Source: Methanocaldococcus indicus
GTDB taxonomy: Archaea > AGJL01 > Methanococci > Methanococcales > Methanocaldococcaceae
DNA: 64,000 nt
Direction: 5' to 3'
Assembly: GCF_049554935.1 (NCBI RefSeq)
Contig: NZ_CP186926.1
Span: 1,280,001 to 1,344,000 of the forward strand
The position numbers and the translations under genes were made by a program. Below are positions 909 through 35,657 of the stretch, piece after piece. The notes beneath the pieces are model-generated. The model was not told where the DNA came from, ran no database searches, and saw only the letters and a program-made list of their open reading frames with translations. Position 1 is the stretch's first letter. The number at the start of each line of letters is the position of its first letter.

Positions 909-2385
909 TGATGTTATTGGATATGTATTTGGTGAGACAAGAGTTGATGAACTATCTTTCTTAGCAAAAAAACCTCCAAAAGTAGGAGATTATGTTATTA
1001 TAAATTATAATGACAACAAAATTTTAGGAATGGTTGAGAGCACAATACTGGGAAGTAGAGCTTTGGATGGAGTATCTGATGTAGAGTACTTAGAAAAAAT
1101 AAAAGATTTTGTAAATGACACATACTATATAAAAGGAAAAATAAAAGTTCTTGGAGATATTGAAAATTTAAAATTACCAAGAATTCCTCCAGAGCCAGGA
1201 ACCCCTATATACTTAGCTGATAAAGAAACATTAAAGAGAGTTTTTGGTAATGGTCATATAAAAATTGGCCATTTAATAACAAGGGAAGATATTGAGGTTA
1301 AATTAGATGTCAATAAATTATGTTCAAGACATTTGGCTATATTAGCTATGACTGGAATGGGAAAGTCAAATACTGTCTCAATACTATTAAAAGAACTTTC
1401 AAAATTAAGAGCTACAATTTTAGTTTTTGACATGCATGGAGAATATGTAAATATAAAGTGTAATTCTCAAAAAATTCCAATAAATATAATTCATCCAAAA
1501 ATTAATGTTTATGAAATTGATGATGAAAGATTTTGTGACTTAGCTGGAATAGATAGGCAAGCAACTAAACAAAGACCTTATGTGCAAAAAGCTATCCATG
1601 AAGTTAAAAATAATAAAAAACAAAGTGATTTTGCAAATGTTGAAGAGTATTTAGATGAAATAATAAGTGTTTTAGAGAGATATTTAGATGAAAATGAAAA
1701 GGATAAGAGTAGTATTCAAACGGCTATATTCAGAATTGAGCATATGAAACACTTTAAGAAGAAAATACTTACAATAAACTATAATCCTGTTAAAGATATT
1801 AAAGAGCATCATGTTAATATCTTACCATTAGAATCTTTGGATGAGTATGAGGTGGATGTTGTTGTATCTTATCTATCTAAATCTATATTGGATAGTAGAA
1901 AAGAGTTAATTATTGAAAATAGGGAACTTGCAAAGCCAATATTTTTAATATTTGAAGAAGCTCATTTAATAGTTCCAAAGAATAGAGATACAGAAGCAAA
2001 AAGATATTTGGGAAGGATAGCAAGAGAAGGTAGAAAATTTGGAGTTGGATTATGTTTAGTTAGCCAAAGACCAAAAGGATTAGATGCTGATGTTCTTTCC
2101 CAATGCTCCAATTTAATAATCTCTAAGTTAATAGAACCATCTGACCAAAAACATGTCCAAGCAGCTTCAGAAGCTTTAAGTGATGATTTAATGAAACAAT
2201 TAACAAGTTTAAATATTGGAGAAGCTATTATTTTAGGGCCATGTGTTAAAGTCCCAGCTTTGGTAAAGATTGATGAATTTGATGGAGAAAGGGGAGGAGA
2301 AGATTTAGATTTAGTTAAATTATGGAGTAGAGAAGAGGAAAAAAAGGATTTTGATGATAATATTTTTGGTGATGATGACTTTTAA
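868..2385 (+). CDS. HerA/FtsK-like ATPase (HAS barrel + DUF87 helicase); true start possibly GTG at 889
   Basis: [14 protein letters not shown] Walker A, FEEAH Walker [20 protein letters not shown] HerA signature. Confidence 0.88.
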
Positions 2386-3479
2386 TCATTTCTTAGGGCT
2401 TTTATTGGTTCTACTTTTGTAGCTTTATAAGCAGGATATAGAGAGGATAATAAAGATGTTAAAACTCCAAAGATGATTCCTATAATAATATATAATATTG
2501 AGGATAATGGTAAAGAAACTTTTAATAAATAAACTGAGACAAAATAACTTATTATTAAGCTGATAATAACACCAACAACAGAGCCAATAAACCCTAAAAT
2601 ACCTGCTTCTAATAAAAATAATATTAAAATATCTAACTTTGATGCTCCTATACTTCTCATAATTCCTATTTCTTTTGTTCTCTCAATTACACTCATTAAC
2701 ATAACATTTCCTATCCCTATTCCAGCAACTAATAAAGAAATAGCTCCAATGGCAATAATAAAATAAGATATCTTAGATATTGCCTCTTTAATATTTTCAA
2801 CTATATTTTTTAATGATATAATTATAGCTTTCTTTTTTCTTTTATTTAAAATACTATCTATCTCTTTTTCAACTTCTTCCATCTTATTTATATCTTTAAC
2901 ATATACAACAATTCTTGTATATCCTTTTGGATTATACAATCTTTTGTATGTCTTTTCTGTTAATACTATTGAATTTTGAGGAACAATAAAAGAACTGTTG
3001 AATATTCCAGATACTCTAAATTTTATATCTCTAATTTTTATAATATCATCTTTTTTAATATCCCCTATTTCTGATAAATAGTTATCAACAGCTAAAGTTG
3101 TGTCTGAAATTCTTACATTCAAATTTGTATATTTTATATCATTCTTATTTATTCCAAATACTCTAACAGATAAATATCTATTCTTCCCAACTAAATAGAT
3201 ATTGTCATATCTTTCATACATTGGAATTACAACTCCATTTATACCTCTAAGTTTTAGTAAATCAGATTTATCAAAATATTCATAGCCAGATACAAAATTA
3301 GGAAATATTATTATGTAGTTTGCTACATTACCCAAGTTGTTATTAACAGCTGTTTTTACACTTTCTCCTAAAATTCCTAATGTTGTTATAGCAGCTACTC
3401 CAATAACTATACCTAACAAAGCTAAAATACTTCTTAATAAATGTCTTTTTAAATTTCTCTTAGCTAATTCTATATACAT
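2382..3479 (-). CDS. MacB/FtsX-type ABC transporter permease
   Basis: [16 protein letters not shown]-terminus and [25 protein letters not shown] motif. Confidence 0.92.
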
Positions 3480-3483
3480 AAAC

Positions 3484-4173
3484 TCACTTTAAATATTCTT
3501 CTTTTTCAATTTCTCCATCTTTTAAATAAATTATCCTATCTCCAAATTTGGCAACATTTATGTCATGAGTCACAACAACAATAGTTTTTCCACTTTCATT
3601 TAATTTTTTTAATAATTTCATTATTTTTTCTCCTGTTTTGCTATCTAATGCCCCAGTTGGTTCATCTGCCAAGATAATTGGTGGATTGTTTGCTAATGCC
3701 CTTGCTATTGCTACTCTTTGCTGTTGCCCTCCACTTAGTTGATTTGGTCTATGGTTAGCAAATCTCTCATCTAACTCAGCCATTTTTAAACATTCTAATG
3801 CTCTCTTTTTTCTTTCTTCTTTACTCATTGAATTTCTATATTTAAATATTAAAGGAAGCTCAACATTTTCCAATGCAGTTAATACAGGAATTAAATTGAA
3901 CTGTTGAAAGACAAAACCAATTTTATCCCTCCTAATTTTTGTTAATTCATCATCATCCAATTTATTTATCAGTATATTATCAATATAAACCTCTCCTTCA
4001 GTTGGTTTGTCCAAACATCCAATTATATTTAACATTGTTGATTTCCCACTACCAGAAGGACCCATAATTGAGACAAATTCCCCTTTTTTTATTTTTAGAT
4101 TTACATTTTTTAGAGCATAAATAGTTTCTTCTCCCATTTTATAAGTTTTTGTTACATTTTTGAGTTCTATCAT
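3484..4173 (-). CDS. LolD/MJ0796-type ABC transporter ATP-binding protein
   Basis: [24 protein letters not shown]; closely resembles M. jannaschii MJ0796. Confidence 0.95.
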
Positions 4174-4174
4174 T

Positions 4175-5671
4175 TTATAACATCCTTCTAAATCCTTTGT
4201 AAATTAAAAATAAAACTCCTAATAGAAAGAGAATACCAAAACCAATTAATAGGTAATTATTGTTTTCTTTATTGTTTTGATTGGTAGTATTCAAATTCTG
4301 TATTTTTATTGTTCTATAAATTGTTATTAAGTTGTTGTTTTCATCTCTATAAGTTATTTTAATTGGAATTTCACTTACATTTTCATCAATTTGGCAGTGA
4401 AGTTCAAAACTTGCATAGTCATCAGGATTTAAAGTTCCTACAAAGTAGCTCTCATAAGGTCTAAGAGGTTTAATATCTTTATTTTCTTCAATTGATAAAA
4501 GAACAGATTTAGCTACTCCACTACCTATGTTGTCTATATCCCCTGTTATTTTGATATAACCATTATTCTCTACATCTAACTGACTAAATACTAAATCTGC
4601 CTTTCCAACAACATTAACTAAGAATGTTTTTTTAATATCTAACTTATCAGCATATATCTCTAAGTTTAGTGGATATATTCCAACTTTATCAAATTTAACT
4701 AAGAAATTGACTTTTTTGGTAGTCCCTTTCTTAATGTAAATATATTTTTCATTATTACCAATAGAATTATTTAGTTTTAAAATAAATAATGCATCTTTGT
4801 AGTTATTTTTAATTAAAAAAGAGATATTTTCCAATTTACCAACAGTTAAACTTGAATTTTCTAAATTAACAATAATTGCTGATTGAGGATAGATATAGAA
4901 GTTTATTGTTCCCTCCTCTGTCTCAGATTTTAGGTTTTTATATGTTAAAGTTTCAGATTTAGAGTCATAAGAGATTGTCTCAGACTTTTGAGTTAGCTCT
5001 AATAGATTGTATGGATTTGTATATGAAATTTTATATTTTAATATACCTACTCCATTAGTTTTTGCATATACATCTAAATATATACATTTTGAGAATCCAG
5101 GGGTTAGAGAGGATATGTAAAAAGAACTTTGTCCTAAGATATCTAAGTTATCTCCATAAAAATCTATTTTTATATCATTTGCTGTTCCTGTTCCTGAATT
5201 TGTTACTAATAAAGTAATTTTGTTATTTCCTACTTTCAATGTGTTTGTTAATGGCTCTATGGTTAAGTATGATTTTCCTCTTACTGGAAGAGTAAAAACT
5301 CTATTTTCTTTATATACCTTATCTTTATAGTTATATTCACAATAAACAACTACTTTATAATCATAGCTAAAAGCTGATGGCTTAATTTTTATAATAAAGT
5401 GTCCTACTCCAACATCTCCTGGAAACAACTTTCCTATCCATGCTCTATCTTTAATAAACTCAATATTTTCCTTTGTTATGTTATTAAAAGGTTTCAAATA
5501 TAGAATTGTATTATTTATTTCTTTATCAGTTTCTATAACAACATACACATCATATGTTTTTCCTGGCTCTAAATATTCTGCTTTATAGTCAAAGCTCTTA
5601 AATGTTATATAAGAATAGGAAAAGCTCAACATTAAAAACATTAAAATTATTAAGATAACTTTTCTTATCAT
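4175..5671 (-). CDS. COG1361 S-layer-domain secreted, membrane-anchored protein
   Basis: Signal peptide, Ig-like repeats (NSGTGTA, NIGSGVAKSV, FVGTLNPDD), C-terminal TM helix; typical partner of this ABC family. Confidence 0.8.
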   Translation of the reverse strand: MIRKVILIILMFLMLSFSYSYITFKSFDYKAEYLEPGKTYDVYVVIETDKEINNTILYLKPFNNITKENIEFIKDRAWIGKLFPGDVGVGHFIIKIKPSAFSYDYKVVVYCEYNYKDKVYKENRVFTLPVRGKSYLTIEPLTNTLKVGNNKITLLVTNSGTGTANDIKIDFYGDNLDILGQSSFYISSLTPGFSKCIYLDVYAKTNGVGILKYKISYTNPYNLLELTQKSETISYDSKSETLTYKNLKSETEEGTINFYIYPQSAIIVNLENSSLTVGKLENISFLIKNNYKDALFILKLNNSIGNNEKYIYIKKGTTKKVNFLVKFDKVGIYPLNLEIYADKLDIKKTFLVNVVGKADLVFSQLDVENNGYIKITGDIDNIGSGVAKSVLLSIEENKDIKPLRPYESYFVGTLNPDDYASFELHCQIDENVSEIPIKITYRDENNNLITIYRTIKIQNLNTTNQNNKENNNYLLIGFGILFLLGVLFLIYKGFRRML

Positions 5672-5674
5672 GGT

Positions 5675-6334
5675 TTAACCAAATATTAGTTTTATTATGT
5701 TATATAGTTGATACAAACCAAATATGATAGTTGGTATCAATGCAGTTATAAAAGCTTTTTTGATATCTAAGTTTCTTGCATATTTTATTGCAAATGTCCA
5801 AATATAAAGGTTCCATAAAGTTACACCAATTCCCACAAATAAGTTAAAATAAACTAAACTTTTAGGAATTATACTTTTTACAACTTTTTGGACAATTATT
5901 GGATTTTGTAGTTGTTCTATAGATAATGGTTGAACATGGATATGTGAGAGATAATAGTAAGCAATAGGAATTGTTATTAATGCTCCAATTATATTTGGGA
6001 GGAATCCATAACCAACAAAAGATAAAGTTTTTTTAAATTTTCCTTTTCCTTTAAATGCAATTGAAATAAGATGCATAATTCCAGCTATAATTATCCAGGA
6101 AATAAGTCCTCCAATAAATGTTGATATTAAACTAATAACTTTTATGAAAGACATAATCTGTTGATACTGAGGAGGGAAGATTTTAAACATTACTGAAGTT
6201 GATATATAGGTAGAGATTGATATTAGTATAGAAAAAACTAAAACAATCAAAAATGGCTCTTTTAGAGAAATTTCTTTTTGAGAAAGTTTTTTAAAGAATG
6301 TATCCGGATTTATTAAAACTTCAATTATATTCAT
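5675..6334 (-). CDS. Yip1-family membrane protein
   Basis: VLINPDTFF N-terminus, GKGKFKKTLSFVGYGFLP, about five TM segments. Confidence 0.85.
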   Translation of the reverse strand: MNIIEVLINPDTFFKKLSQKEISLKEPFLIVLVFSILISISTYISTSVMFKIFPPQYQQIMSFIKVISLISTFIGGLISWIIIAGIMHLISIAFKGKGKFKKTLSFVGYGFLPNIIGALITIPIAYYYLSHIHVQPLSIEQLQNPIIVQKVVKSIIPKSLVYFNLFVGIGVTLWNLYIWTFAIKYARNLDIKKAFITALIPTIIFGLYQLYNIIKLIFG

Positions 6335-6389
6335 TAATATCCCTCATTATATTTTTTAATTAGTTTTATTGTTTATTGTATTTAAATCT

Positions 6390-6926
6390 TTATGTTAGTA
6401 TATAATTTGCTATTTTAGGAGTAATATAAACTTCTACAAAAGCAGCTATAACTATTAGAATTATTGAAATTAAAGATAATTTTAGGAACTCTTTTATATC
6501 CTCATTAGTTATTGGTTTTTCTTTTTTATCTAATAAATAAAGAGTTACTTCATAAGGAATTTTAAAGCCAGCTATTGCTGATATTAATATAGCTGGAATT
6601 TCGAATATACCGTGCGGTAGAGTAGTGACTAAAACAAAAAACCAGTTTTCTAATAAAGCTAATGCCTTAAATTGAATCGCTAATGCAAATCCATTAACTA
6701 CAAGATTATATATAATAGGAACTAAAAATACTCCTCCCAATATGTTAGTAAATACTACCTTTAGATTATTAAACAAGATTCCAAAAAACGAACACTTTGG
6801 TAGAAAATTAGCAGTAGATAAATCTATTCCACTAAATATATTTAACGGTGTAAAAAGCCCATATATAAATCCAAGTATAAAAATAATTATTGGCAAAATT
6901 TTATATATTTCTATATTCACTTTCAT
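6390..6926 (-). CDS. SpoIIM/DUF95 membrane protein
   Basis: ILFNNLKV, NG, LPHGIFEIPA and IAAFVEVYITP DUF95 motifs. Confidence 0.9.
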   Translation of the reverse strand: MKVNIEIYKILPIIIFILGFIYGLFTPLNIFSGIDLSTANFLPKCSFFGILFNNLKVVFTNILGGVFLVPIIYNLVVNGFALAIQFKALALLENWFFVLVTTLPHGIFEIPAILISAIAGFKIPYEVTLYLLDKKEKPITNEDIKEFLKLSLISIILIVIAAFVEVYITPKIANYILT

Positions 6927-7393
6927 TATTTTATTCCATGTGATTGATTCCAGTTTTTAAGAATATTTACTCCAAAGGCAAAAACAAAGCCTCCAGCATA
7001 ACTTAATATTAATATAATAAACAAACATTCTAATTGCTGAGAAGTTAAAGGATAAATAATAAGATATTTTATTAATATTGCAGAAAGTAAAATAACTAAT
7101 GGAAATGAAAATAAAAATATCTTAAAAAATTTTTCAAGGTTCTTTTTTTCAAATATGACATACTTTTTAATATTTTTACTTAATAGAATTTTTGACAAAT
7201 AAAATCCAATTAGCATTCCTATTGCAACTAAAACCACTGAAACATTAAAAATATTTTTTAGTAGGGGCATACCATAATTTAAATAAAAGTTAGAAAGTAA
7301 TATTGGAACAATCCAGAAAAATATACCTTCAATCATTAAAAGTAATCCAACAACATTTGGATTATTTATCCATGAGTGTGCAATATTTCTCAT
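6926..7393 (-). CDS. Small 4-TM hypothetical membrane protein (possible immunity protein)
   Basis: Four hydrophobic segments; GGTGA RBS precedes ATG at 7393; stop overlaps the DUF95 start. Confidence 0.6.
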   Translation of the reverse strand: MRNIAHSWINNPNVVGLLLMIEGIFFWIVPILLSNFYLNYGMPLLKNIFNVSVVLVAIGMLIGFYLSKILLSKNIKKYVIFEKKNLEKFFKIFLFSFPLVILLSAILIKYLIIYPLTSQQLECLFIILILSYAGGFVFAFGVNILKNWNQSHGIK

Positions 7394-7413
7394 AAATATC
7401 ACCAAAAAAAAAA

Positions 7414-7497
7414 TTAAAAATTAAAATAAATTATATTTATATTAACTAAGACCAAAGCTCCGAAAATCTTACATACACCATTCTTCAAAAATTTCAT
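7414..7497 (-). pseudogene. Truncated secreted-protein/precursor ORF, MKFLKNGVCKIFGALVLVNINIIYFNF
   Basis: AAGGGTGG RBS-like sequence before ATG; basic n-region plus hydrophobic h-region that runs into AT-rich, T-tract sequence. Confidence 0.45.
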
Positions 7498-7500
7498 ATT

Positions 7501-7560
7501 GCCACCCTTTATTGGTGGTTGTGCGGTAGGCTCAGCTCCTACATCGAAGCGTCATCGCCA
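7501..7560 (-). ncRNA. Putative structured RNA leader: K-turn hairpin plus RBS-sequestering hairpin
   Basis: GC-rich island. Minus strand reads GGC-GAUGA-C-GCUUC-GAUGUA-GGAGC-UGA-GCC, then CCACC-AAUAAAG-GGUGG. Confidence 0.5.
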
Positions 7561-7744
7561 ACTATTTTTTAATTTTTTATATTACTTTACTTATCTACTA
7601 CTTCGATTTCCAAATTTTTCATTAAAATAATAATACAAAACCCCTGTATATATTATGATTTTAATCAAATAGTAAAGTATAAAACGTTTCCGATTAGAAT
7701 TTTTAAATAACTAAAAAATAATAAAATGGTTTATAAATGTAAAG

Positions 7745-8090
7745 TTATGTTAGTATATAATTTGCTATTTTAGAAGTAACATAAACTTCTACAAAAGCAG
7801 CTATAACTATTAGAATATAAGAAATTTTAAAGCCAGCTATTGCTGATATTAATATAGCCGGAATTTCGAATATACCGTGCGGAAGGATTAAAGCTAAAAT
7901 TAGTTTTAACGGTTCATTTGTTAAGAATGTAGAACCGATTAAAACTCCAACATTGAAACCGTTAAAAATTAAATTTATAAAAGTAGATAAACCGAAGGTA
8001 ATAGAACCTGCTAACATTAAAAAGATAACTTTTAGGTTATTTGTCAGAATTAAAGATAAAGGTGCTGGACTGAATTTTGATGAAGATAAA
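7745..8090 (-). pseudogene. Degenerate second SpoIIM/DUF95 copy (frameshift plus internal deletion)
   Basis: LILTNNLKVIF* is out of frame with MLAG...LPHGIFEIPA; 3' part nearly identical to 6390-6617 but lacks about 90 bp. Confidence 0.8.
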
Positions 8091-8155
8091 AAATAATTTT
8101 TAGTTTTTATGTCATTAATACAACTATTGATTATTTTATAGATAACTGCAAAATT

Positions 8156-8707
8156 ATGATAAATTCAGATATAGAAATAGAATATCGTGGGAATATAATA
8201 AGAAAAAGATACTATGACACAATGGTAAAAATTGAAGGATATATAAAGGATACTAATTTGGATGAATTTATAGATATAATTAATAATCTCTGTTATTCTT
8301 ACCTACTGTTACCATGTGATAATTTTCAAAAAGAATGTGCATCAAGAGATGAACTTTTAAAGAAGTTTAATATAAAAGAACCTGATGATGATTTTATAAA
8401 AAGTATAATTAAAGAGACATTTGAATTTAATGACTTAGCAACAGAAAATCTTAACAAATCACATATTTACAATAATATTGAAGAAATTTTATCTATTTTA
8501 AAACATAATGATGTAATAGAGGATTATAACATTGGTATTGATGTACAAGATAAGTTAATAATTGTAGATATAAAAGTAATATCCAAAAAAGTTTTTGGAA
8601 TATTTAAAAAAGATGTCAATATTGACTCAATTAAAAAGATACTATTAAAAAATCTAAAAAATATGTATCCTAATCTCAATATAGTAATTTCAATAGCTGT
8701 TGATTAA
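8156..8707 (+). CDS. Hypothetical protein
   Basis: 183-aa ORF with host-like codon usage; no motif recognised. Confidence 0.6.
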   Translation: MINSDIEIEYRGNIIRKRYYDTMVKIEGYIKDTNLDEFIDIINNLCYSYLLLPCDNFQKECASRDELLKKFNIKEPDDDFIKSIIKETFEFNDLATENLNKSHIYNNIEEILSILKHNDVIEDYNIGIDVQDKLIIVDIKVISKKVFGIFKKDVNIDSIKKILLKNLKNMYPNLNIVISIAVD

Positions 8708-14825: not shown

Positions 14826-15527
14826 GAGAGTGTTAAGTTAAGCTTTTATTAATAATTGATAAAAAATAATAAAATATGAAGCTCACGATAGAAGTCTTAA
14901 AGGAGAGAATCGAAGAGGAGAAGATTTTTAAAAGGAATAAGAAGTCGATAGAAGTTAAAATCTTAGCTGGGATTTTGTATTATCTTGGACTATCGTTGAG
15001 GAAGGTAAGTTTGTTTCGTTCCCAATTCGAAAGTATAAGCCATGAGTCGGTTAGGACTTATTATCACAAGATTAAAGATGTTTTAAACGAACCTGAAAGA
15101 AAGGAAAGATACGCAATTGCAATCGATGAGACCAAACTAAAGATTGGAAATGAAAATATTTACGTATGGTCTGCTATTGATGTTGAATCGAAAGAGTGCT
15201 TGGGAGTTTATGTTTCTGAAACAAGAAACTGCCTCGATACTATATTATTCGTTAAGAGTATATTAAAATTTTGCTCTAATAAGCCGAAGATTTTGGTCGA
15301 TGGTGGAAGATGGTATCCGTGGGCATGGCAAAGATTGGGTTTAGAATTTGAAAGAGTCAGATTCGGACTGAGAAATTGTGTAGAAAGCTTTTTCTCACTA
15401 CTCAAACGAAGAACTAAAGCATTTTATAATAGGTTTCCTAATAACAGCAAATTCGATACAGTTGTTAGCTGGATTAAAAGTTTCATGATGTTCTACAATT
15501 GGTTGAAGTCGTTAACTTGACAGTGTC
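14826..15527 (+). mobile_element. IS6-family insertion sequence (about 700 bp)
   Basis: Imperfect 16-bp TIRs GAGAGTGTTAAGTTAA (14826-14841) and TTAACTTGACAGTGTC (15512-15527), 13/16 match; flanking direct repeat TATTTTAAT. Confidence 0.9.
14876..15520 (+). CDS. IS6-family DDE transposase
   Basis: [38 protein letters not shown]; stop lies inside the right TIR. Confidence 0.92.
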
Positions 15528-22850: not shown

Positions 22851-22904
22851 GCTCAGTCGTCCCAGGCATCATCATAAATCAGCCTATAACCCTATCATCA
22901 TCGC
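22851..22904 (-). ncRNA. Box C/D methylation-guide sRNA
   Basis: GCG-AUGAUGA(C)-UAGGGUUAUAGG-CUGA(D')-UUU-AUGAUGA(C')-UGCCUGGGACGA-CUGA(D)-GC, with two 12-nt guides. Confidence 0.92.
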
Positions 22905-22916
22905 ATAAATAAAATT

Positions 22917-35332: not shown

Positions 35333-35657
35333 GGTGTGCATGGCTTCCTTGGGGTGGACTGGCCTCCCTACTTATCCCTGTAACCCCGAGGCCATCTCGG
35401 CCCCGCACCCCCGTGAGCACCGACGTCCCACCTACCGTTGCTCCCTTCCGGGCCTGGCGGGGTTCGGTGGGTAAAGGGGGTTATGCCCTCCTTACAGAGG
35501 GCACTCCCCCTCCGCCGAGTCCCACGGGACGAGGCCTCATTGATGGCCTCGGGAGGGACAAGTAGAGAGACCAGCCGCCCCCAAGTTTTCGGCCCCCGCA
35601 TAAGGACGGTTTCGGGTTACAGGGGACGCCCAACCCCCCGGCCTAGCCATGCACACC
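35333..35657 (-). ncRNA. ffs: Signal recognition particle (7S) RNA
   Basis: GC-rich; terminal helix GGUGUGCAUGGCU/AGCCAUGCACACC; helix-8 GCCAGGCCCGGAAGGGAGCAACGG. Confidence 0.96.

Follow-up and report, generated by a model that had tools for sequence, protein, structure and literature searches.

To our knowledge, archaea have few known families of cis-regulatory RNA that are backed by comparative evidence, and the only well-studied case of mRNA control by a kink-turn (K-turn) is the action of L7Ae on its own message. Binding of the L7Ae protein to K-turns has been described for the 5′ untranslated regions (5′ UTRs) of saci_1520 and saci_1468, with repression of reporters (PMC5539422), and every K-turn analyzed in a further study folds upon the addition of L7Ae (PMC6298567). 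In this report, we describe a K-turn element of 31 nucleotides (nt) on the minus strand (7559..7529) of a 64-kb stretch of DNA, which we refer to as the window. The element precedes a truncated gene in the window and intact genes for small secreted peptides in related genomes. The source of the window was treated as a Methanocaldococcus-like archaeon on the basis of its archaeal signal recognition particle (SRP) RNA and its ATP-binding cassette (ABC) ATPase of the MJ0796 type.

The autoregulatory K-turn of the l7ae 5′ UTR and the saci_1468 leader (PMC5539422; PMC6298567) resemble our element in that each is a standard K-turn (GAU bulge, tandem G.A/A.G pairs), placed as a stem-loop in an mRNA leader with a Shine-Dalgarno (SD) sequence, and in that L7Ae is the expected ligand. 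In contrast to the l7ae leader, the downstream gene here encodes a small secreted peptide (in the window a stub, followed by a 155-amino-acid membrane protein), the K-turn ends 22 nt before the SD sequence rather than next to it, and the SD sequence is covered by an anti-SD hairpin of its own. Moreover, the K-turn is located at the predicted 5′ end and is tandem-duplicated in two of nine leaders (L004a and L007a). These two leaders recall the double K-turn of euryarchaeal RNase P RNA, with its two adjacent K-turns of the L7Ae type (PMC5499556), but they contain two separate hairpins in an mRNA leader, and the likeness drawn here is one of architecture. No description of this leader was found in the literature searched; the screen of M. 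jannaschii for GC-rich non-coding RNAs by Klein et al. (2002) lay outside the comparison.

Anatomy and conservation of the K-turn element

A first-pass annotation of the window had pointed to a GC-rich island in intergenic DNA, and this island is real: positions 7500-7559 have a guanine-plus-cytosine (GC) content of 56.7%, compared with 12-28% in the flanking 60-nt windows and 28% in the 64-kb window overall. Over 50 nt, its GC content of 58% is the second-highest 50-nt peak in the 64 kb after that of the SRP RNA, and no other of the 25 GC peaks listed falls into the gap between the flanking genes (7744..7498). The K-turn that the same annotation had read from the minus strand was borne out at 7559..7529, both by inspection of the sequence and by homologous copies with compensatory changes. 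The strand can be written as GGC / GAU / GA / C / GCUUC / loop GAUGUA / GGAGC / U / GA / GCC and, judged by this sequence, the element conforms to the definition of a standard (simple) K-turn, with a canonical (C) helix, a 3-nt bulge, tandem G.A/A.G pairs and a non-canonical (NC) helix. Its parts, and the conserved region preceding it, are as follows:

7560..7625, minus strand: promoter-like conserved upstream region, with an A/T-rich run up to −2 (alignment A4)
G7559-G7558-C7557 with G7531-C7530-C7529, minus strand: C-stem
G7556-A7555-U7554, minus strand: bulge
G7553.A7532 and A7552.G7533, minus strand: tandem pairs
C7551:U7534, minus strand: 3b:3n
7550-7546 with 7539-7535, minus strand: NC stem, with its loop at 7545-7540

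The motif is unique in the window when up to three mismatches are allowed, and no match was obtained in 100 shuffles; nor did the covariance model introduced below reveal a second copy in the window (best other match E = 2.5). The folding energy of the leader is unremarkable (−17.9 kcal/mol, z = −0.56; 45 of 200 shuffles fold equally well), and the case for the element therefore rests on the comparison with relatives and the covariation seen there.

Relatives of the locus were collected by scanning one genome per species with the permease encoded at the locus, represented by six exact 8-residue patterns. This yielded eight loci from Methanocaldococcus, Methanothermococcus and unclassified Methanococci, a set that lacks the source genome and any locus labeled M. 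jannaschii, M. vulcanius, M. infernus or FS406-22; the last three encode relatives of the peptide or of the 155-amino-acid protein. As found by BLASTN of window positions 6300-8200 against the eight loci, the intergenic region recurs in relatives, often several times per locus. The K-turn word pattern occurs 13 times in 162.7 kb when both strands are considered; 11 of these occurrences are in homologous leaders, and the remaining two are unrelated matches in the GC-richer locus L006. The homologous copies are that of the window and those at L001 1603; L002 1571 and 4345; L004 352, 394, 2002 and 3717; and L007 23, 58 and 2234, so that the ten copies beyond the window come from four related genomes (five genomes in all).

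We aligned the 11 copies with MAFFT and scored eight Watson-Crick or wobble pairs, corresponding to 86 cells. Standard pairs were present in 86/86 cells, compared with 81% in column shuffles (none of 500 reached 86/86) and 20-44% when the partner strand was slid. In the NC stem, four of the five pairs have changed on both sides yet still pair, across 15 cells, and at least five distinct NC stems are present (GCUUC/GGAGC, GCCC/GGGC, GCCUC/GAGGC, GAACC/GGUUC and GAACAU(U)/(A)AUGUUC); the NC helix, which continues with pairs after 3b:3n, varies between 4 and 7 base pairs (bp). The C-stem is GGC/GCC in ten copies and GGU/GCC in one, the bulge always measures 3 nt (GAU ten times, UGU once), and both the GA after the bulge and the GA before the 3′ strand of the C-stem are invariant in all 11 copies. 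RNAalifold returned the same eight pairs when no structure was supplied. Two of the pairs (window column 17-30 and L004_2002 column 7-37) are G.U pairs that would be A.C mismatches on the other strand; hence, the structure is one of RNA and belongs to the minus strand. The plus strand, which folds similarly (−18.4 kcal/mol, z = −1.46) and on which a 43-amino-acid open reading frame (ORF; 7499..7630) overlaps the island, was considered as well; it was rejected because the G.U pairs and the asymmetry of the K-turn fit the minus strand only and the sequences change pairwise, not codon-wise.

The first-pass annotation had also suggested building a covariance model from homologs. This was done, conservation and covariation of the NC stem being found in the 11 copies; the model built from the alignment gives the window copy a score of 53.8 bits, with the other copies at 46-57 bits. 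It recovered ten of the 11 training copies (the remaining one overlaps its neighbor) and found no further copy in the window or the loci (best others E = 2.5 and 3.9). In two of the nine leaders, a second complete K-turn hairpin (L004 394-424 and L007 58-88) directly follows the first on its 3′ side, with no adjoining promoter. Since these tandem copies keep the whole motif away from promoters, the conservation of its 5′ half is hard to explain at the DNA level, which argues that the whole motif works in RNA. Collectively, these data make it highly likely that a conserved K-turn-shaped RNA element is present.

The identity of two positions bears on how such a K-turn would fold: 3b:3n is C:U in four copies, U:G in six and U:U in one, while −1b:−1n is C:G in ten and U:G in one. 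Published rules for these positions predict which K-turns fold in metal ions alone (PMC6298567); with C:G at −1b:−1n in 10/11 copies and either C at 3b or G at 3n in 10/11, the peptide-leader K-turns are predicted to do so, and the change from C:U to U:G at 3b:3n keeps the predicted class. For the l7ae leaders, by contrast, folding is predicted to depend on protein, and for one of them this has been demonstrated (PMC6298567). At 85 °C, nearest-neighbor folding places the K-turn hairpins at about 0 kcal/mol when no protein is present, which points to the need for one.

The peptide genes behind the leader

In each of the eight leaders whose downstream gene has an ATG, the last K-turn ends 31-43 nt 5′ of the start codon, and the downstream gene is always that of the peptide (seven motif matches, leader L002a and the window stub). 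The genes upstream of the leaders differ by locus and comprise SpoIIM, a PIN/AF2212-like pair, a HicB-like gene, a transposase and an archaeal ATPase. At locus L005, the Yip1-CARDB-ABC genes are present, but there are no peptide modules and no K-turn. The fixed peptide gene on one side, the variable genes on the other and the negative L005 locus thus link the element with the peptide gene, at its 5′ side, rather than with the upstream gene or the ABC cassette. L7Ae-dependent control had been proposed for this cassette in the first-pass annotation; a structured K-turn RNA in a leader and the archaeal L7Ae precedent speak for the type of control, but the assignment to the cassette has to be given up in favor of the peptide genes. 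Upstream of Yip1 in L005 (about 4138-5991), we noted repeated short translated motifs typical of an array of clustered regularly interspaced short palindromic repeats (CRISPR).

The peptide ORFs comprise 88-110 residues, with a conserved, signal-peptide-like N-terminus (MKFLERGVYK.FAGLVLVSMIGALVAEPVALGD and variants), a variable middle and a variable, Gly/Ala-rich and hydrophobic C-terminus. The family has no significant match in Pfam or NCBIfam. Its database relatives are few, all annotated as "hypothetical" and all from Methanocaldococcus-like organisms, and most of them match the first third only; the ESM Atlas provided weak leads that stay below the level of evidence (best 0.80; a glycine-zipper cluster at 0.79). 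The first peptide gene of L002 (at about 1640) carries ATA where all others carry ATG, and the frame behind it stays open; it has either a non-canonical start codon or was recently inactivated.

Each peptide gene is followed by a gene for a variable small membrane protein and then by a SpoIIM-like gene, and one to three such modules stand ahead of the Yip1-CARDB-ABC genes. A decayed leader at about L001 5262 has kept the promoter-like region and GGUGAUGACGC and has lost the 3′ half of the K-turn together with the peptide gene, in whose place a 64-amino-acid membrane ORF stands. Mobile and toxin-antitoxin genes lie between the modules of the relatives (L001 4422-5106; L002 2483-3481 and 3713-3925; L007 924-2042), among them a PIN and AF2212-like pair, a DDE transposase, a weak HicB-like ORF below the cutoff and an MJ1010-like archaeal ATPase, and these gaps look like an insertion hot spot.

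The corresponding locus of the window, located entirely on the minus strand, is arranged as follows:

8017..7745, minus strand: truncated SpoIIM-family paralog (90 amino acids; partial Pfam SpoIIM match), just before the promoter region of the leader
7744..7498, minus strand: 247-nt gap containing the GC island
7497..7414, minus strand: stub ORF of 27 codons (from translation)
7393..6926, minus strand: 155-amino-acid multi-pass membrane protein (ORF), the first intact gene 3′ of the leader
6926..6390, minus strand: full-length SpoIIM-family membrane protein (Pfam), the last gene of the module
6334..5675, minus strand: Yip1-domain protein
5671..4175, minus strand: CARDB-like protein (498 amino acids)
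4173..3484, minus strand: ABC ATPase of the MJ0796 type (PDB match to M. jannaschii MJ0796, E = 2e-133)
3479..2382, minus strand: FtsX/MacB-type permease

The stub ORF, claimed in the first-pass annotation, is indeed there and ends in TAA. Only its first 19 or so residues align to the peptide family, an AT-rich spacer follows, and DNA homology to L001 stops at about 7445; the stub is what a deletion has left of a small signal-peptide gene. We considered an archaeal selenocysteine insertion sequence (SECIS) element and rejected it, the stub ending in TAA, the peptide ORFs of the relatives being complete and no SECIS family matching at E ≤ 10. We propose that the leader and promoter now mainly serve the 155-amino-acid membrane protein and the genes behind it. 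This protein has its own GGUGAU ribosome-binding site (RBS; 7403-7398), belongs to no Pfam family and, in a database search, had only five relatives besides itself, one of them from Methanocaldococcus sp. FS406-22.

The SpoIIM fragment at 7745-8017 shares 93-96% identity with the 3′ part of its intact paralog (6390-6620), lacks a 90-nt stretch of that gene (6390-6926) and is divergent in its 5′ part; it looks like either a decayed upstream module or the product of gene conversion between paralogs. An insertion sequence is present about 7 kb from the leader, where a 214-amino-acid ORF on the plus strand (14876-15520) carries a DDE transposase domain (IS240-type). The archaeal SRP RNA is found in full length at 35337-35653 on the minus strand (Rfam, 257.8 bits), and the 64-kb window contains no tRNA.

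The SD hairpin, the transcript start and possible modes of action

The second hairpin of the first-pass annotation, said to cover the RBS, is present as well. It consists of CCACC (7518-7514), the loop AAUAAAG (7513-7507) and GGUGG (7506-7502), a stem of 5 bp in which GGUGG is the SD sequence of the stub ORF, five bases before the ATG at 7497. In nearest-neighbor folding, it is part of the minimum free energy (MFE) structure of the window copy at 37 and 65 °C and is gone at 85 °C; five of the nine leaders keep it at both 37 and 65 °C, and L007a alone keeps it at 85 °C. Between the K-turn and the SD sequence, no block is better conserved than ACCACC (spacer alignment A2), and by inspection, anti-SD and SD sequences share at least 4 contiguous bp in six of the nine leaders.

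It had further been suggested that the leader has alternative folds, with GUAGG (7542-7538) pairing with CCUAC (7530-7526) in place of the K-turn. This helix can form, but in the window not beyond the level of chance: when the 5′ strand was removed, the loop, the 3′ strand and 12 downstream nt were folded and those 12 nt were shuffled, 26% of the shuffles were equally good. Summed over the 11 copies, the value is 1.3%, a signal that we discount because it is driven by L004, whose copies are non-independent. Furthermore, the alternative helix is not linked to the SD hairpin, neither it nor the K-turn exposes or covers the RBS, and every MFE structure contains both the K-turn hairpin and the SD hairpin, the fold of one leaving the other unchanged; we therefore do not take a switch between the K-turn and the RBS as established. 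The suggestion of a riboswitch-like element fared no better. Rfam 15 was searched with the whole window at the gathering score and with the island region at E ≤ 10; the former search returned the SRP RNA only, and the latter a single chance match (SNORD102) in 7300-7800 that lies outside the island. No known aptamer family thus falls on the island at E ≤ 10, and only the 31 nt and a short spacer are conserved.

Across the relatives, the promoter-like block keeps a fixed distance upstream of the K-turn. Promoters of M. jannaschii have a TATA box (TWTATATA) whose end is 23 ± 2 nt away from the start, a purine preceded by a T, and an A/T-rich element at −11 to −2 (PMC2699501). Since 25 nt separate the end of the TTTAAAAA/G box of L004 from the first G of the C-stem, transcription is predicted to start at about −4 to +1, and the K-turn would then form the extreme 5′ end. 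Farther upstream, about 36-62 nt from the K-turn (approximately 7595-7621, minus strand), another block (…ATGAAAAAT.TGGAAA.CGA…) is conserved in all four genomes whose loci keep the upstream sequence; it could be a transcription factor B recognition element (BRE) or a regulator site.

With a moderate leaning as far as the chain as a whole is concerned, we favor a cis-acting K-turn in the 5′ leader that would control mRNA stability or translation, the K-turn being, by analogy with the described leaders, probably a binding site of L7Ae, which serves archaea as their K-turn protein. The minus-strand island would be the leader of an mRNA whose 5′ end, generated by initiation or by processing, is at the K-turn (7559..7529) or immediately before it, and which continues into the anti-SD/SD hairpin (7518..7502). 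Because the K-turn stands apart from the SD sequence and is predicted to be pre-folded, we favor a constitutively formed, 5′-terminal ribonucleoprotein (RNP) with L7Ae, which would set how much of the downstream message is used. This RNP may protect the mRNA, or the segment of a longer transcript that corresponds to the module, from 5′→3′ decay; it may also, or instead, tie translation to the pool of free L7Ae. The former step draws on the general principle that a protected 5′ end guards RNA against decay. A separate brake on initiation, either constitutive or temperature-dependent, would come from the SD hairpin. In the relatives, the leader would serve the peptide gene and then the genes for the small membrane protein and the SpoIIM-like protein.

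Several observations weigh against this chain. The K-turn ends 22 nt before the SD sequence, so that steric occlusion of the simple kind known from the l7ae leader is unlikely, and the independent folding of the two hairpins offers no coupling between them. In three of the nine leaders (L007b, L004b and L004c), the SD hairpin is weakened by uncompensated changes in the anti-SD or SD sequence, and no compensatory change in this hairpin was seen across the nine. The C-stem and the G.A pairs are invariant and hence show no covariation, which is confined to the NC stem. Moreover, all copies come from one narrow clade and include near-duplicates (two in L002 and two in L004), so that the independent double substitutions number perhaps five or six, fewer than the counts of cells. 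The folding energy of the window copy is, as noted above, ordinary. Where the relatives have TTTAAAAA, the aligned box of the window is a poor TATA sequence (AGTAAAGT, 7591-7584); the better TATA-like word (TAATATAA, 7584-7577) leaves only 17 nt to the first G of the C-stem and, with the spacing of 23 ± 2 nt (PMC2699501), would put the start inside the 5′ strand of the K-turn. Finally, the peptide gene is broken in the window, and this copy of the leader might be inert.

This last point leads to a reading in which the window element is a non-functional relic, the peptide gene having been deleted and the leader persisting until it decays. The reduction of the ORF to 27 codons, the end of homology to intact genes near 7445, the fragmentary state of the upstream SpoIIM gene as well and the existence of a decayed copy at about L001 5262 are in line with such a fate. 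The window copy is, however, intact at every K-turn position and scores within the range of the others, its SD hairpin and ATG are intact, and the short spacing of the downstream genes on the same strand implies that promoter and leader are probably still needed; we regard a relic as rather unlikely. Less probable still is a stand-alone small RNA (sRNA), a minimal, guide-less K-turn RNP of the C/D type that has its own promoter or is left over from mRNA decay and that acts in trans or merely accumulates. The consensus sequences of the C and D boxes are RUGAUGA and CUGA, and the core of the element resembles them, with AUGACGC...CUGA in the window and GUGAUGA...CUGA in L004 394-424, which also has the canonical U:U at 3b:3n. 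As in box C/D sRNAs, the C-like and D-like words form a K-turn that has a canonical stem at its end; immediately upstream, there is a conserved promoter-like region, and the GC-rich island stops before the ORF. The leader K-turn nevertheless measures 31 nt instead of about 55, and the stem behind it is closed by a loop. Each hairpin has one C-like and one D-like word, there are no C′ and D′ boxes and no single-stranded guide of 10-12 nt, and the bases before the D-like box belong to the NC stem and a loop of 5-7 nt. The leader alignment contains no conserved T-run between the K-turn and the ORF, while the distance to the start codon is held at 31-43 nt and the SD hairpin is conserved behind the K-turn. 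A canonical archaeal box C/D sRNA does occur in the window at 22851-22905 (minus strand), with C, D′, C′ and D words and two 12-nt spacers; it stays under every Rfam gathering score, yet matches about 28 C/D-box families, including sR20 and sR14 at E of about 2e-6. Given that this sequence draws about 28 such families and the island none at E ≤ 10, the island is not a C/D sRNA, and the minimal C/D-like sRNA entertained in the first-pass annotation was not upheld.

Temperature alone might also govern the leader, with CCACC/GGUGG as an RNA thermometer that closes the RBS below the growth temperature and the K-turn as an architectural or stabilizing appendage. As in known SD-sequestering hairpins and RNA thermometers, an upstream anti-SD sequence and the SD sequence form a short hairpin for which melting with temperature is predicted, and its persistence at 37 and 65 °C in five of the nine leaders and full opening at 85 °C in the window copy, together with the conservation of ACCACC, would suit this role. 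Here, however, the stem is linked to a K-turn, its temperature response is a prediction, and with 4-5 bp it may be open over the whole growth range; the hairpin does not covary, is weakened in three leaders and leaves the best-conserved feature, the K-turn, without an explanation, and we consider a pure thermometer most improbable. Nearly as improbable is that the conserved words act in DNA, as a transcription-factor or promoter-proximal site, and that RNA makes use of the inner hairpin alone or of no part of the motif. In its favor, GGCGATGA sits where the best TATA-like word of the window puts the start site (PMC2699501), and the C-stem and GA positions are invariant and do not covary. Against it stand the tandem second copies, which keep the full motif far from promoters, and the G.U pairs, which fit only the minus strand as RNA; an asymmetric 3-nt bulge, GA on both strands and a covarying stem are, moreover, the signature of a K-turn and not of a palindromic protein site.

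What the leader may mean for Methanocaldococcus

Variable modules beside a MacB-type exporter, amid mobile and toxin-antitoxin genes, recall bacteriocin-immunity loci; this is an analogy only, and the weak glycine-zipper leads are the sole hints. By this analogy, the K-turn leader could be a sensor of free L7Ae, and thereby of ribosome assembly or growth state, that switches on polymorphic, secreted, glycine-zipper-like peptides, each with its own "immunity-like" membrane protein, SpoIIM-like protein and MacB-type exporter. A bacteriocin-like toxin/immunity system under RNP control, in which the window stub would represent an "orphan immunity" module that keeps its leader, is a speculative and quite improbable scenario.

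Returning to the 5′-terminal L7Ae RNP that we favor, control of mRNAs through L7Ae and K-turns is already known; what is new is a leader with covariation support in front of unrelated, lineage-specific genes for secreted peptides, of a class that is predicted to be pre-folded and is sometimes tandem. If L7Ae binds it, the L7Ae regulon of methanogens would extend beyond L7Ae itself, and the leader would represent a simple, portable 5′ RNP module working at 80 °C or above. The finding also draws attention to an unstudied, fast-evolving locus for peptides, membrane proteins and an exporter in Methanocaldococcus.

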